Source of the DNA: an uncultured Clostridia bacterium
GTDB lineage: Bacteria > Bacillota > Clostridia > TANB77 > CAG-508
Assembly (NCBI GenBank): GCA_944391155.1
Contig: CALXSO010000116.1
Coordinates: 1-32,391 of the forward strand
Direction: 5' to 3'
Length of the DNA: 32,391 nt
A program made the translations under genes and the position numbers. Shown here one piece after another: positions 5,572-28,504 of the stretch; position 1 is the first letter of the stretch; every line of letters begins with the position of its first letter. The notes under the pieces were generated by a model that was not told the origin of the DNA, did not search any database, and saw only the letters and a list, made by a program, of their open reading frames with translations.

Positions 5572-7323
5572 CTATACTTCAATATCAGATACTCCTAATA
5601 GATATTTTTGAATTTTTAATAAATCTGCTGAATCTATTTTATTATCACTGTTTGCATCACCAGCTTTAAAATTAGTTTCCTTTAAAGCTGTTACATTTAA
5701 TAAATGTTTTTGTACTGATAATAAATCTGCTGAATCTATTTTTCCATCTCCGTTTGGATCACCTTTTTTTGTTATAGTATAAATATCTTCTACAATATAC
5801 CCTGTTCCAATTATAGATTGCTCATTTTCTAAATAACTTCCATCAGATTTTACTATTTTTGCAGTTCCTCCAAATGCATCCAAAATATCTTGTGCTTTTA
5901 CTTCAGGTTTTACCGTAATTGTTTTAGTGGCTTCATCTATTTTCACTTTTTCGGTATCTGTTGGTGTAACTGGCGTTGTTGGATTTTCAGGAGTTGTTAT
6001 ATCTGTTGGTGGTGTCTCTGTTCCTGCATTTTCATCATCATTACCGCCTATTGGTACAAGATATAATTTATATGTAGCTTCATTTTCATAAGTTTCTCTT
6101 GCTGCATATCCTATTGTTCCATCAGATTTTTGTACCTTATCCCAATATGTTCCATTAACTTTTGTTGTTGCCTTTTCTAACCTAGATACAATTTCATCTT
6201 TATATAACCATCCAACTGTTGTACCTCCATTAGGTTCATTTCTAAGTCTCAAAGATGGGTTTGCATCTACTTTAACTAAATCAGTTCCTACAATTGCACT
6301 TCCTGATGAATTTGGTCTTTCACAAGGCTGTGCCGGCATGTTTTTATATACAGGTATTATAAAAGTATGTGAAGAAAATACTGAATTTATATCTTCATAT
6401 GTTTTTCTTAATGTATTTCCTTCAGATTGAGCCGCCATTATATTTTGCTGATATTGATGAACATATGGTCCTCCTGAATTTGTTGTTACATTAAATTTTT
6501 GTAAATACAATGTATTTTGCCCTTGTTTTATATAGTTGTCTGCTACAAAACTTATTCCTCCACTTATTGACTTTTCTAGTGTATCCCATCCTTTTTTCTG
6601 AGCATATGCTAGTCCATTTGCTATAACCTGTTCTGTTGAATTTCCAGATGCTCCTATATTAAATGCATTAAAATATCCTGATTCTCCAGAAACTAATGTT
6701 GAACCATTTCTTCCTTGCTCTTGTATTATTCTCGCAACAATATAATAAGCATTTACATTGTAACTATTTGCTGTATCTAATATTCCTTGCTCATGTCCCT
6801 GCAAAAAAGTTCCTTGAGTCATTGATTGCAAGCTTGTTAAATTACATCCAGGATTTGTTAACTCTTCAAATTGAAATATATCTGTCTGATTTAATGAGTT
6901 TCTAGGATCCATCATATATGCTATTGCTTGTTCTGAAGCACATCTCCAACTCCCATTATCATAAGGTTTATCACCACATATTGAACATATCCATTCTCCT
7001 TGATAAGTCCCTGATTTCTGTACAAGATTTTTTGGTGATGCCCCATGTCCCTGATATTCTCCACTTATTACATCACTCCAATTTAAATCAGTATATAATA
7101 TCTTAAAATTCCAATTAGGATATTTAGATTTTAATGATGCTATCATACTCTTTATCCCTGGATATTCTGTTTCATTTAGAGTATTATAATCTGAACTAAT
7201 TGATTGACTAGCATATGATTTAGTGTTTATACATATTGATAATAAACTATATGCTAGAAATACAAAAATAAGAATAGTTGAAATAATATTTTTATGACCT
7301 TTATTTTTATATTTATATTCCAT
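5572..7323 (-). CDS. Secreted GH73-type N-acetylglucosaminidase with an SH3 domain and a C-terminal type-I dockerin
   Basis: ORF 5572..7338. The ATG at 7323 lies 8 nt after GGAGG. Glucosaminidase core is YYIVARIIQEQGRNGSTLVSGESGYFNAFNIGA. SH3-like stretch is LRLRNEPNGGTTVGWLYKDEIV...YWDKVQKSDGTIGYA. Duplicated calcium-binding dockerin segments are GDPNGDGKIDSADLLSVQKHLL and GDANSDNKIDSADLLKIQKYLL. Confidence 0.75.
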   Translation of the reverse strand: MEYKYKNKGHKNIISTILIFVFLAYSLLSICINTKSYASQSISSDYNTLNETEYPGIKSMIASLKSKYPNWNFKILYTDLNWSDVISGEYQGHGASPKNLVQKSGTYQGEWICSICGDKPYDNGSWRCASEQAIAYMMDPRNSLNQTDIFQFEELTNPGCNLTSLQSMTQGTFLQGHEQGILDTANSYNVNAYYIVARIIQEQGRNGSTLVSGESGYFNAFNIGASGNSTEQVIANGLAYAQKKGWDTLEKSISGGISFVADNYIKQGQNTLYLQKFNVTTNSGGPYVHQYQQNIMAAQSEGNTLRKTYEDINSVFSSHTFIIPVYKNMPAQPCERPNSSGSAIVGTDLVKVDANPSLRLRNEPNGGTTVGWLYKDEIVSRLEKATTKVNGTYWDKVQKSDGTIGYAARETYENEATYKLYLVPIGGNDDENAGTETPPTDITTPENPTTPVTPTDTEKVKIDEATKTITVKPEVKAQDILDAFGGTAKIVKSDGSYLENEQSIIGTGYIVEDIYTITKKGDPNGDGKIDSADLLSVQKHLLNVTALKETNFKAGDANSDNKIDSADLLKIQKYLLGVSDIEV

Positions 7324-7660: not shown

Positions 7661-9202
7661 TTATCTAGCATAATCAACAACTCTTGTTTCTCTTATTACA
7701 TTTACCTTAATTTGTCCTGGATATTCCATTTCGTTTTCTACTTTTTTAGAAACATCCCTTGCTAAAATTGTCATTTCATCATCAGAAATCTTATCTGGTT
7801 TTACTAAAATTCTTATCTCTCGACCAGCTTGAATTGCAAATGATTTTTCAACTCCTTCAAAAGAATCTGCGATTTCCTCAAGATTTTGTAAACGTTTAAT
7901 ATATGCTTCTAAAGTTTCTCTTCTTGCACCTGGTCTTGAAGCTGATATTGCATCTGCTGCTTGAACCAATACCGCTTCTAAACTTTGAGGCTCTACATCA
8001 CCATGATGTGCTTCTACTGCATTTATAATAATTGGATTTTCTTTATATTTTTTCAATATCTCAACACCAATTTCTACATGTGTTCCTTCCATATCATGAT
8101 CTAATGCTTTTCCAATATCATGTAATAATCCAGCTCTTCTTGCAATTTTTGGATCTAATCCTAATTCCTCTGCCATAATTCTTGCTAAATTAGAAACTTC
8201 AATTGAATGATTTAAAACATTTTGTCCATAACTTGTTCTATATTTTAATTTACCTATTAATTTAACCAAGTCTGGATGCAATCCAATAACTCCTGATTCT
8301 AAAACAGCTCTTTCCCCTTCTGATTTTATTGTTTCTTCAATCTCTTGTTTTGCTTTTTCAACCATTTCTTCTATTTTTGCAGGATGAATTCTTCCATCAT
8401 CAATTAATTTTTCTAATGCAATTTTAGCAACTTCCCTTCTTAATGGGTCAAATCCTGATAAAACTACTGCTTCTGGTGTATCGTCAATTATCAAATCTAT
8501 TCCTGTCAATGTTTCTAATGCTTTAATATTTCTTCCTTCTCTACCAATAATTCTACCTTTCATATCATCACTAGGAAGTGCAACTATTGATACTGTTGTT
8601 TCTTGTGAATGGTCTGCAGCACATTTTTGAACTGCATAAGTTAATACTTCCTTAGCATTTTTGTTCACTTCTTCTTTAATTTTTTGCTCTGCTTCTCTGA
8701 TCATCGTAGCCTTTTCAGCAGTAATATCCTTTTCAACCTCTTTTAATAATTTTGCCTTTGCATCCTCTTTTGTTAAAGCTGCAATCTGTTGTAGTTTATC
8801 AAGCTGTTCATCATAAAGTTTTTCTACTTCTGATTTTTGCTCCTCTACTTCTTGCATTCTTTTTTCTAAATCTTGTTCTTTCTTTTCAAAATTCTCTGAA
8901 CGTCTTTCTAGACTCTCTTCCTTTTGAATTAATCTTGTTTCTTGTTTTTGTACTTCGCCTCTTCTTTCTTTAATCTCTTGATCTAACTCTTTTCTGCTGC
9001 TCATAATTTCTTCTTTTGCTTTAATAATTTCTTCTTTTTTCATATTTTCAGCTTCAATTTTTGCCAAATCAACAATTCTTTTTGCTTCTTGCTCAGCACT
9101 ACCTAATTTAGATTCTGCAATTTTTTTTCTGTATGTCATTCCAATTAGTGCTCCTATTGCAAGCGAGATTAAGAAAGTGGCTACTATGATTACAATATAC
9201 AT
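7661..9202 (-). CDS. rny: Ribonuclease Y (N-terminal TM helix, coiled coil, KH and HD domains)
   Basis: 513 aa. KH motif [31 protein letters not shown] and HD motif LLHDIGKA...HHGD. The whole protein aligns by eye with Firmicute Rny. RBS is AGAGGTG. Confidence 0.95.
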
Positions 9203-9291
9203 AAGTATACACCTCTTTCTTATTTAATTTTCAATGTTCGAATCAAATATATCTATTTTAGTAATTTCATATATTTTTTTCTTCCTTCTTT

Positions 9292-9320
9292 ATTTTAACT
9301 TTATTATGGTTAACTGTCAA
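9292..9320 (-). promoter_or_regulatory. Sigma-A-type promoter for rny
   Basis: The minus strand reads TTGACA, a 17-nt spacer, then TAAAAT. The -35 hexamer overlaps the TGA stop (9317-9319) of the upstream ORF. Confidence 0.6.
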
Positions 9321-11137
9321 GAGTTTTCACGATTTTTATTTTGGGGGGATTTGGGGACGGTCCTTAAAATCCCTCCTAGGAGGGATTTTAAGGACCGTCC
9401 CCAAATCCCCCACAACAATCCATCATATTCTTCCGAAATTTGATTAAAATCACTATTCATTAATACACATTTTCCATTTTCTTTGATTATCCAATAATAA
9501 TTATCAAACATGACCAAATATAATGTTTGTATTATTCCTGTACCATTACTATCGAAAACAAAATATTTACAATCCATATCAGATGAATTATATTGTATTA
9601 ATATAATTTTACCATTCCTAACATCTTCAATTTCATATTTACCATTATATTTTACTCTATAACCCCAAGAATCATACCAACCACCACTTAAGCCATCTAA
9701 ACTTCTAAAAGGAATATATCCATCTGTAAGCACATTTATTTTAATTTCTGAATTCTCTATACTTCCCTGTATATACTCTATTTCTGATGTTTCTTCTCCA
9801 TCAGCTCTTTTTACTGTTACTCTACATTTTAAGTAACTATACATAAAATATTCATCATCTGATGCATATATTTCTTCATCTTCTAAAGGTTCTATCAACA
9901 TCAAATAATTTTCATTTTTATAATAATATCTTCCTAAATTTTTTTCGTCTTCAATATATATTTTTTCCTTTTCATATACATCTTTATCTTGTCTTTCAAA
10001 AATTATTTCCTCATTATTATCTGTACTTATAAATGCTCTTAATGAAAAATCAAAAGTTTCAATATAAGAATAAACTAATCCATTTTTATAATTATATTTA
10101 TTTATATTATTAAATATAGCTTCTTCTGAAAGATTATCAAATTTTGATAATATACTTGAATCCAAAGTTGCTTTATCTCCACTTTTAGAAATCACATAAT
10201 AATTATTTCCTTTTTTGGCAAGAGAAAAATAATATTTTTCATTATTTTTTTCTAAAGAATAAAAGTATGTTACTTTATCATACTCACAAGCAATTTTTTC
10301 TTCACCATCTTCGTTGATAAATCCATATTTTTTATCTTTTTCTACAGGAATATATAATTCACTTTTTGTATTTCCTTTTAATAAAGATATATCTTGAATC
10401 AATTGTGCAACTTGATTTTTTCTTTCATTATCCCACATTTTTGTTATAATAATAGCATAAATATTAAGTATTAAAAACATAACAACTACTAAAGCATGCA
10501 ATAAATAATGAATTATTACATCTATTACTTTATTAAAATTATTTGTTTTTTCTATATTTTTTTCAATATGTATATAAATAAATTGCATAATCACAGATAA
10601 TATAATCCATAATTCCCCATATACTAAAAATGAAATACTAAACAATTCAAGTATAGAAATTATAATTACAAATATATAAGAAAATATCTTTATTTTTGTA
10701 GGCTTATATTTTTTAATATAAATAAAATTTTTAATGGTTATCAATATTGGAATAACTACAAAAAGTATTATATCCAAATATTTAATAATTTCTAAATTAT
10801 CTTTCAGAATTGTAGATTGTAATGCAAAAGCAATACAAATAGCTCCAAAAACAAAATACCAAAAAGATAACTTTTTATTTTTTCTATTTTGTACAAATGA
10901 AACTATATTTGATATACCAAGTGCTAAATAAAATATTAATAATATTTTTTCAATATTTTTAATAAAACTTTCAACAATAAAGTTATCATAAATATATATA
11001 TATCCATCTGGTGATGATAATGAGTTATAGAATATATAATCAATCGAAAAATATAAAATACAAAATGCTATTATTCCTATTACATTAAATACTGATACAA
11101 TATAATTAGTGCTTTTATTCCACTTTTTTTCTATCAT
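9317..11137 (-). CDS. Polytopic membrane protein with a C-terminal WG/KWG-like repeat domain; the last ~30 codons read through the palindrome
   Basis: 606 aa. The N-terminal ~230 aa hold multiple hydrophobic helices. The C-terminal part carries repeats of the YGFINEDGEEKI...YDKV type. RBS AAGGGG lies before the ATG at 11137. The true 3' end is uncertain (see findings). Confidence 0.65.
   Translation of the reverse strand: MIEKKWNKSTNYIVSVFNVIGIIAFCILYFSIDYIFYNSLSSPDGYIYIYDNFIVESFIKNIEKILLIFYLALGISNIVSFVQNRKNKKLSFWYFVFGAICIAFALQSTILKDNLEIIKYLDIILFVVIPILITIKNFIYIKKYKPTKIKIFSYIFVIIISILELFSISFLVYGELWIILSVIMQFIYIHIEKNIEKTNNFNKVIDVIIHYLLHALVVVMFLILNIYAIIITKMWDNERKNQVAQLIQDISLLKGNTKSELYIPVEKDKKYGFINEDGEEKIACEYDKVTYFYSLEKNNEKYYFSLAKKGNNYYVISKSGDKATLDSSILSKFDNLSEEAIFNNINKYNYKNGLVYSYIETFDFSLRAFISTDNNEEIIFERQDKDVYEKEKIYIEDEKNLGRYYYKNENYLMLIEPLEDEEIYASDDEYFMYSYLKCRVTVKRADGEETSEIEYIQGSIENSEIKINVLTDGYIPFRSLDGLSGGWYDSWGYRVKYNGKYEIEDVRNGKIILIQYNSSDMDCKYFVFDSNGTGIIQTLYLVMFDNYYWIIKENGKCVLMNSDFNQISEEYDGLLWGIWGRSLKSLLGGILRTVPKSPQNKNRENS
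9344..9411. repeat. Perfect 68-bp palindrome (34-nt arms, no loop) centred on CCTAGG
   Basis: GGGGGATTTGGGGACGGTCCTTAAAATCCCTCCT | AGGAGGGATTTTAAGGACCGTCCCCAAATCCCCC. I checked every position p against position 18755-p and found no mismatch. It is much more GC-rich than its surroundings. Confidence 0.95.
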
Positions 11138-16168: not shown

Positions 16169-16752
16169 CTAATAAACACCTTCCTTTTTATATTTTTTAT
16201 ATTAAAAATTAAAAACTTTTTTAACACTAAAATTAATTTTTTTAACTTTAGATTTTATGAGTACCTTTTTTATGACTTTATCATCTAAATATTTTTTCTT
16301 GTTGTATATAGATAAATCCAAATATGCAAAAAAACCAATTGCCCTATATATAGGACGAATTGGTTTTTTCCATATTTCGTGGTACCACCTATTTTTATCA
16401 GAGTCATCAAATACTAATTTTTATCTCTTTATATTAATAAATCACATTTTTATCTCTCTATATTAATAAATCTAATTTTATTTAATTAAATTTAGTTTAA
16501 TATAATCTAATTAATTTTATATAATTAGTATAATAAATTGTTTATTAATATTACTCTAACCTCATTAAAATGCTATAACGGGCTTTCCCGCTTTTTCCTA
16601 ATAACTTATGATTTCATAGCTTTCAAAAAAAGTTCTAAAAAAGTGAAATTTCCATTTAAGACAATTGGAAATGTTTTTCAGCTAATAACATTTCTCTCTT
16701 TTTCAATTTATCTTCTTAAATGTACTTTGCTTTTTTATTGAATTTATATATA
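16169..16752 (-). promoter_or_regulatory. T-box leader of pheST (terminator/antiterminator, T-box motif, probable UUC specifier); unusually long
   Basis: On the minus strand the T-box motif AAATAGGTGGTACCACGAAATATGG lies at 16369-16393. Terminator AACCAATTCGTCCTATATATAGGGCAATTGGTT plus T7 lies at about 16326-16368. Upstream, AGAGAG, a hairpin and GGAAATTTCA give a TTC codon at 16645-16647 followed by A. The 5' boundary is inferred from a candidate promoter and is uncertain. Confidence 0.6.
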
Positions 16753-28429: not shown

Positions 28430-28504
28430 TGGCAGGGGTAGAAGGACTCGAACCCTCACAGGCGGTTTTGGAGACCGATGTGCTACCATTAACACTATAC
28501 CCCT
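28430..28504 (-). tRNA. trnW: tRNA-Trp (anticodon CCA), with the 3' CCA encoded
   Basis: Reverse complement AGGGGTATAGTGTTAATGGTAGCACATCGGTCTCCAAAACCGCCTGTGAGGGTTCGAGTCCTTCTACCCCTGCCA. Acceptor stem is AGGGGTA/TACCCCT, anticodon loop CTCCAAA and T-loop GGTTCGAGTCC. It closely resembles Bacillus tRNA-Trp. There is one U-C mismatch at the top of the anticodon stem. Confidence 0.85.

Follow-up and report, generated by a model that had tools for sequence, protein, structure and literature searches.

In a 32,391-nucleotide stretch of DNA from an uncultured Clostridia bacterium (contig CALXSO010000116.1; the whole stretch is called the window below), the gene of a 606-residue WG-repeat membrane protein reads at its 3' end through a perfect 68-bp palindrome that precedes rny, the gene of RNase Y. 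The palindrome consists of two hairpin units joined as an inverted dimer, and the repeat unit, dispersed and multi-copy, is half of the 68 bp. It is quite probable, in our assessment, that the unit is an extragenic repeat resembling the repetitive extragenic palindromic (REP) sequences and their paired form, the REPIN, that it is dispersed in some low-GC uncultured Clostridia of the chicken and human gut, and that one of its inverted dimers has come to lie on the end of the WG-repeat gene.

The palindrome and its repeat unit

The palindrome had been noticed in an earlier inspection of the window alone, the original prediction, and its main structural claims were borne out by comparison of the two arms (9344-9377 and 9378-9411), which are 34 nt each, 100% complementary and joined around the centre CCTAGG with a spacer of 0 nt. 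The arms also stand out in composition, as had been said: 19 of 34 positions are G or C (56%) versus 19-33% in the 1-kb bins of the window, which has about 25% GC. None of 100 dinucleotide shuffles gave a match to the arm (expected number 0.00). No second copy of the arm exists in the 32-kb window, even when 3 mismatches are allowed, and a covariance model of the unit (R1) matched only the two palindrome arms in it, Unit 1 at 9335-9382 on the plus strand with 58.8 bits and Unit 2 on the minus strand. Unit 2 is the first unit met by the mRNA of the 606-residue gene and lies in sense orientation to it.

Copies elsewhere were revealed by public metagenomes. In runs from chicken and bird gut, depth over 9352-9414 rose to 10-60 times the flanking value (150-250 versus 13-14 in X1, 48-70 versus 4-5 in X2 and 229-327 versus 4-6 in X8), and many short contigs matched only from 9346 or 9350 to 9389 or 9409, with 1-8 differences, before continuing in unrelated sequence. 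The exact 21-mer GGGGACGGTCCTTAAAATCCC was present in 101 stretches of a metagenome collection, in 57 distinct 48-nt contexts; these contigs have 25-39% GC, except L138 and L218. Model R1 added diverged copies within the loci already found. The unit is about 36-40 nt long and has the consensus AAYM-GGGATTTY-GGGGACGGTCC-TTAAAATCCC-KRTT, where AAYM and KRTT are the left and right flanks.

The commonest form of the unit is a singlet hairpin. In low-GC contigs from chicken and human gut we counted at least 43 distinct loci with a singlet and 7 with a dimer, and tandem arrays were present too. The GGGGAC cores are convergent in all seven distinct inverted dimers, that of the window included, and divergent in none, and the two units are joined by TCCTAGGA or by its symmetric variant TTCTAGAA. 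Tandem arrays have a period of 63-64 nt, and giant palindromes occur whose arms are such arrays. Three of the latter (L177 8255-8560, L153 6990-7345 and L167 1-330) have arms of about 130-150 nt around an AT-rich centre; two GGGGAC units alternate in the arms, the palindromes lie between housekeeping genes such as murG and ftsW, and L167 shows at least four array periods at the contig end.

Among the listed loci from species-representative genomes, R1 recognized only two chicken-gut metagenome-assembled genomes (MAGs) of "uncultured Clostridia" (L060 and L104) and matched three Clostridium MAGs weakly (L069, L031 and L107). Beside this, L104 contains a unit of about 112 nt that is tandemly duplicated in two ribosomal-protein operon spacers, L18-S5 and S11-S4 (514-769 and 6348-6603); its core, CACAAGGGGAGGGGACATTCCTTAAGCCCTAGTG, resembles the GGGGAC..TCCTTAA..CCCT part of the hairpin unit. 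A relative with a 54%-identical WG-repeat protein, L004, has a different perfect palindrome at 8698-8763, with 32-nt arms and a 2-nt spacer, immediately behind a Laminin_G_3 gene. Short repeats of the AAAATTCGC type come next, and the only sequence that this palindrome shares with that of the window is TTTGGGGAC/GTCCCCAAA.

In Rfam 15 the palindrome did not reach a gathering threshold, matching only generic long-hairpin miRNA models below it, and the sole match in the whole window was a tRNA (28433-28504, minus strand). A literature search with the motif returned only unrelated primer sequences, and one by keywords returned REP and REPIN papers. We thus found no description of the GGGGACGGTCC hairpin family either in Rfam or in the literature searched, although the kind of repeat, REP-like, is already known.

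Independent assemblies of the locus

Contigs from independent public runs, anchored in the unique flanks, reproduced the palindrome without difference. Its centre was crossed by record 3 of X4 (9213-9392) and by record 7 of X1 (9363-9411), each with 0 differences, and no contig from eight runs skipped the palindrome, as an empty-site allele would. A separate metagenome assembly, L001, from a strain 99% identical to the window, also carries the palindrome at this locus (L001 1789-1856). Six of the 68 positions of this copy, grouped around the centre, differ from the window, versus 2 of 253 in the flanks, and neither of its arms equals the arm of the window. The perfect symmetry is therefore not fixed. 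The central differences may have arisen by genuine decay or by exchange with other copies, or they may be noise of the assembly.

Placement and orientation of the units

For the placement counts, redundant contigs were collapsed to the 43 distinct singlet loci, and orientation was judged by the gene whose 3' end faces the unit, sense meaning that GGGGACGGTCC is carried by that gene's mRNA strand. Almost all of these loci (41/43) lie outside open reading frames (ORFs). Distance to the stop codon followed orientation: 19 of 22 sense units, versus 0 of 18 antisense units, were within 30 nt of a stop codon (Fisher p = 1.2e-8), the median distances being 10 nt and 85 nt, respectively, and the sense units near gene ends sit 2-28 nt past the stop codons. 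In 19 of 54 cases an ordinary hairpin-plus-T terminator was located at most 110 nt downstream on the sense strand, and in 1 case upstream, so that the stop codon is usually followed by the sense unit and this by a terminator or the next cistron.

The units also vary between strains. L060 carries a dimer and L172 a singlet at one and the same locus, with flanks about 99% identical and an indel of 36 nt that corresponds to one unit; a unit can be present in one strain and absent from another. No target duplication was seen at this indel or at 40 distinct singlet loci, and inspection of the sequence showed no flanking duplication at the palindrome of the window, in agreement with the original prediction.

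The end of the WG-repeat gene and the junction with rny

The 606-residue ORF (9317-11137, minus strand) indeed runs through the palindrome and stops, as the original prediction had stated, inside the -35 hexamer of rny: its TGA (9319-9317) overlaps TTGACA (9320-9315). The protein scores 23.8 bits with PF14903 (WG_beta_rep), just under the cut-off. We found 33 homologues, with a coverage of at most 94% of the query except for that of the 99%-identical strain (P0001). In alignment A1, every aligned homologue besides the one from this strain (14/14) ends 0-16 residues after the conserved motif EYD(K/R)II. Past L575 the window protein reads WGIWGRSLKSLLGGILRTVPKSPQNKNRENS, a tail that matches no aligned homologue except that of the 99%-identical strain. 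By this alignment the palindrome-encoded residues are foreign to the WG-repeat protein, as had been proposed, and conservation of these residues as coding sequence, which would have spoken for an ordinary gene end, was not found among the homologues. When the 68 bp are removed in silico, the frame meets a stop 2 codons further on. A single substitution would turn the first foreign codon (TGG, 9412-9410) into TAG or TGA, and the end of homologue P0029 lies one residue beyond the position aligned with this codon. The ancestral stop of the WG-repeat gene would thus have been at or beside the edge of the repeat, probably at the present TGG codon. Because the dimer overlies the gene end, the ORF stays open as far as a chance TGA in the rny -35, which makes the protein longer by 31 non-conserved residues. 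Table 1 gives the coordinates of the features.

Table 1. Features of the palindrome and its neighbourhood (window positions; a dot marks features without strand)
Feature	Position	Strand	Basis or remark
68-bp perfect palindrome, inverted dimer of the repeat unit	9344..9411	.	Convergent GGGGAC cores; layout recurs at 6 other loci
Unit 1 (GGGGGATTTGGGGACGGTCCTTAAAATCCCTCC)	9344..9376	+	Core GGGGACGGTCC reads on the + strand; 49 other copies in the alignment
Unit 2, sequence identical to Unit 1	9379..9411	-	R1 match 9373-9420 (-), 52.8 bits
Palindromic junction TCCTAGGA, 8 nt, between the CCC/GGG unit ends	9374..9381	.	
WG-repeat membrane-protein gene, conserved part (residues 1-575)	9413..11137	-	Homologues
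Non-conserved 31-residue C-terminal extension (W576-S606) and stop codon	9317..9412	-	Alignment A1; in-silico deletions
rny promoter-like site, TTGACA-17-TAAAAT	9292..9320	-	Outside the repeat; starts 24 nt downstream of it
rny (RNase Y), downstream gene	7661..9202	-	RNase_Y_N, KH and HD domains

The -35, -10 and leader of rny are conserved in a related contig from human gut, L211. The stretch with the rny ribosome-binding site and leader (9205-9246) showed a depth excess of 10-40-fold in chicken-gut runs, and it is probably common to several abundant related species because promoter and leader are conserved in L211. This contig carries units of its own at 5740-5778 and 7842-7889, one about 48 nt upstream of the rny -35 and another about 50 nt upstream of the thrS start. 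The unit near rny is antisense to rny and lies after the thrS terminator.

The window as a whole is normal chromosomal DNA from a spore-forming organism of Clostridia type, with genes for YtfJ, ScpA, pheST, rny, a sortase and dockerin proteins; no transposase or recombinase was found among its genes. Upstream of pheS (16169-16500) there was no T-box or other Rfam family at threshold, and an imperfect palindrome was noted at 16320-16377.

Predicted RNA structures and their possible roles

The predicted fold of a sense singlet RNA is a helix of 16 bp without interruption, closed by a triloop (-22.1 kcal/mol). On the antisense strand two G-U pairs turn into C/A mismatches, so the predicted RNA has a 2x2 internal loop (-16.6 kcal/mol). 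For the dimer, the predicted RNA is a 32-bp hairpin with a 4-nt loop (-66.6 kcal/mol, z = -11.8).

In a 3' untranslated region (3' UTR) the sense singlet could act, through its stable 16-bp hairpin, as a barrier to exonucleases at the 3' end or as a weak terminator. In E. coli, REPs no more than about 15 nt from a stop codon are reported to lower the translation of the upstream gene, a finding attributed to Liang, Rudd and Deutscher in 2015. The 32-bp helix of the dimer within the extended ORF of the WG-repeat gene would impede ribosomes and exonucleases. It would also be long enough for RNase III, long perfect RNA helices being established substrates of this enzyme, and cleavage would leave a transcript without stop codon, as in the case of arfA in E. 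coli. The dimer would partly uncouple the upstream transcript from rny, which would retain its own promoter and leader.

Origin of the repeat and alternative explanations

A mobile element of REP or hairpin type was among the possibilities raised by the original prediction. The anatomy fits, that of a dispersed, multi-copy extragenic repeat; the 68 bp as one single element do not, the unit being half of them. The units would spread as single-stranded DNA hairpins through an enzyme acting in trans, by analogy one of the HUH/Y1 type, a route that fits the lack of target duplication together with a hairpin that has a conserved apex. Dimers would arise when an inverted unit is added beside an existing one, and they could collapse by slippage between AAATCCC direct repeats.

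Several results weigh against a mobile REP-like repeat. Recognition by a Y1 enzyme, either a REP-associated tyrosine transposase (RAYT) or an IS200-like one, had been suggested and gained no backing: tblastn with two Y1 queries (approximate sequences) gave no match in 1.66 Mb of element-bearing loci, which is a weak test, and no transposase was found near any copy of the unit. The dimer/singlet polymorphism could reflect deletion only, and copy number in the source genome is inferred from metagenome depth. Members of the GTAG- and CGTC-tagged REP superfamilies bear an unpaired terminal tag (PMC3733652), whereas the GGGGACGGTCC unit is without it and ends in AAYM-GGGA / TCCC-KRTT; CGTC is found in the unit only at the hairpin apex, on the complementary strand and not at an end. 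At the RNA level, covariation in the stem was weak in the collected sample, which is uninformative because the sample was selected by the exact 21-mer core, and metatranscriptome runs contained almost nothing from this locus.

A farther-reading proposal, which we advance tentatively and with considerable doubt, is that the GGGGACGGTCC hairpin would represent an undescribed REP-like family of Firmicutes that spreads without RAYT through some other enzyme and that serves as a strand-specific 3'-UTR module, either recruited or merely tolerated. The sense hairpin, 2-28 nt past the stop codon, would determine where an mRNA ends, its stability or termination-coupled translation; a derived form, the inverted dimer, would be an RNase III target, and it could give transcripts without stop codon where it overlaps an ORF end, as in the window.

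Two of the alternatives read the palindrome as a device of this particular locus. A regulatory structure for rny or for the upstream gene (a protein operator, an attenuator or a processing site for RNase III or RNase Y that separates the transcripts) would agree with the distance of 24 nt to the -35 of the conserved rny promoter, with the unit that L211 also has upstream of this promoter, and with the suitability of a 32-bp perfect RNA helix for RNase III. Yet dozens of unrelated loci carry the same sequence, for instance those between adk and map, between murG and ftsW and after thrS, and for this reason an operator or an rny-specific processing site, both put forward originally, is unlikely as the primary explanation. 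In L211, besides, the unit is an oppositely oriented singlet, and what precedes it is another gene with its terminator; the L001 copy has 6 palindrome-breaking changes and an unchanged promoter. An intrinsic terminator of the upstream gene, possibly bidirectional, is very improbable in our view. A very stable hairpin at a gene end would suit this function, and at least 5 T were present in the 8 nt past the sense hairpin at 27 of 40 distinct singlet loci versus 16 of 80 background sites; but here, where the sequence after the palindrome is CCAAAATAAAAA on the minus strand and ACAACAATCC on the plus strand, there is no T-tract on either strand, as already noted in the original prediction, and a search of 8900-9900 gave 0 terminator-like sites on both. 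The 32-bp stem also far exceeds those of intrinsic terminators, and a separate ordinary terminator follows many of the singlets.

The other two concern the nature of the sequence itself. We hold it to be decidedly unlikely that the unit is a MITE (miniature inverted-repeat transposable element), that is, a short non-autonomous DDE transposon with terminal inverted repeats, derived from an insertion sequence (IS) and moved by a full-length IS elsewhere. The element is small, palindromic, multi-copy and AT-flanked, and its ends, GGGATT.../...AATCCC, could be short terminal inverted repeats. However, target-site duplications were found at 0 of 40 distinct singlet loci and not at the indel, no ORF was located between inverted unit ends in the 1.66 Mb of loci and no IS candidate emerged, a unit of about 36-40 nt is below the typical MITE length, and clusters of tandem and inverted units are like those of REPs and of bacterial interspersed mosaic elements (BIMEs) rather than of MITEs. 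That the palindrome is an artefact of assembly or sequencing, or else ordinary coding sequence, is hardly credible. Chimeric reads can create perfect palindromes and an ORF does traverse this one, but the identical sequence was recovered in contigs of several independent runs, some of which span the centre, as well as in the L001 assembly, and the encoded residues are missing from all more distant homologues.

For the REP-like repeat we also considered membership in a wider, cross-phylum superfamily defined by TTTGGGGAC...GTCCCCAAA. A scan of a genome collection with TTTGGGGACR...YGTCCCCAAA gave listed matches that were mostly palindromic and came from many phyla. In the viral collection, two composition-matched control 10-mers gave 10 and 16 matches versus 9 for the real motif, and among the listed loci R1 recognized only L060 and L104 (and weakly L069, L031 and L107). 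We dropped the idea: since the controls match equally and any 10-mer in a long hairpin fits such a pattern, this breadth is not evidence of one family. Several Clostridia MAGs have their own multi-copy relatives. In L040, L118, L049, L020/L072 and L110 the copies keep TTTGGGGAC plus 6-10 nt, and their copy-specific outer flanks and inner stems are mutually complementary; it looks as if a conserved module were placed inside different hairpins.

Other candidates were rejected as well. Integron attC sites were discarded, the R''/R' core sites (RYYYAAC ... GTTRRRY) being missing from the unit and its neighbours being housekeeping genes with no integrase. A phage or plasmid origin was discarded too: the 68-mer had no match in plasmids and only 23-nt chance matches in phages, all in one phage, and the 21-mer was absent from viral contigs. 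Readings as a CsrA sponge, G-quadruplex, SECIS element or telomere-resolvase site were set aside on anatomy.

Significance of the repeat family

REP-type repeats have been well studied only in Proteobacteria, and their function and movement are still debated. A family in very AT-rich uncultured gut Clostridia would offer an independent system in which to ask whether hairpins of this kind are parasitic or have a working role in 3' UTRs, and this one has a clear unit, gain or loss of units at the strain level and an all-or-none rule of orientation relative to stop codons. This rule is the one feature worth following up. On the practical side, the units break short-read assemblies, lead annotation to extend ORFs falsely, as with the 31-residue tail of the WG-repeat protein, and can be mistaken for locus-specific regulators.

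Comparison with known repeat families

Multi-copy palindromic repeats near gene ends and promoters are also known in Neisseria, where the RNA hairpins of the Correia elements (CREE) are RNase III substrates. The Correia elements measure 100-155 bp, have 26-bp terminal inverted repeats and are flanked by a TA duplication; this size, these terminal repeats and the duplication are all absent from the GGGGACGGTCC repeat. The GC clusters of yeast mitochondria, short palindromic sequences that are GC-rich and mobile and contrast with their very AT-rich genome (PMC4478555), are like the GGGGACGGTCC repeat in appearance only, as they are organellar and eukaryotic, unrelated in sequence and of a different proposed mechanism.

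Closer parallels exist with the CGTC-tagged REPs, including Rickettsia RPE-4 and RPE-6, which are likewise small palindromic repeats of AT-rich genomes (PMC3733652). These repeats sometimes lie inside ORFs, to which they add 20-30 residues, their head-to-head dimers predominate and no associated transposase gene is known (PMC3733652). They differ in their terminal CGTC, stems of 8-9 bp, loops of 4-5 nt and CCA tail (PMC3733652), whereas the GGGGACGGTCC unit has CGTC in the apex, a stem of about 16 bp and an unrelated sequence.

The closest resemblance is to the REPs, BIMEs and REPINs of Proteobacteria, which are mobilized by Y1 enzymes of the RAYT type. There are differences. The host of the GGGGACGGTCC unit is a low-GC Clostridia lineage and its 1.66 Mb of loci yielded no RAYT, a dimer of the type seen in the window has no spacer beyond the 8-nt palindromic junction, and the units are strictly orientation-dependent relative to stop codons, for which we found no equivalent description among REPs. 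The proteobacterial repeats are imperfect palindromic units of 20-40 nt in many copies (PMC3733652; PMC3337134; for their anatomy see also PMC3116915). They are extragenic, placed near the 3' end of the upstream ORF with an occasional overlap of the ORF end, and they occur as singlets, as inverted dimers able to form a single long hairpin and as clusters, with no target duplication. A REPIN consists of two REPs in inverted orientation (PMC3337134), and REPs have been documented as dimers, at distances of up to 20 bp from the 3' ends of ORFs and inside ORF ends (PMC3733652). The GGGGACGGTCC unit is likewise short and multi-copy, has the same extragenic position near ORF 3' ends and forms inverted dimers too, one of which forms the palindrome at the end of the WG-repeat gene.

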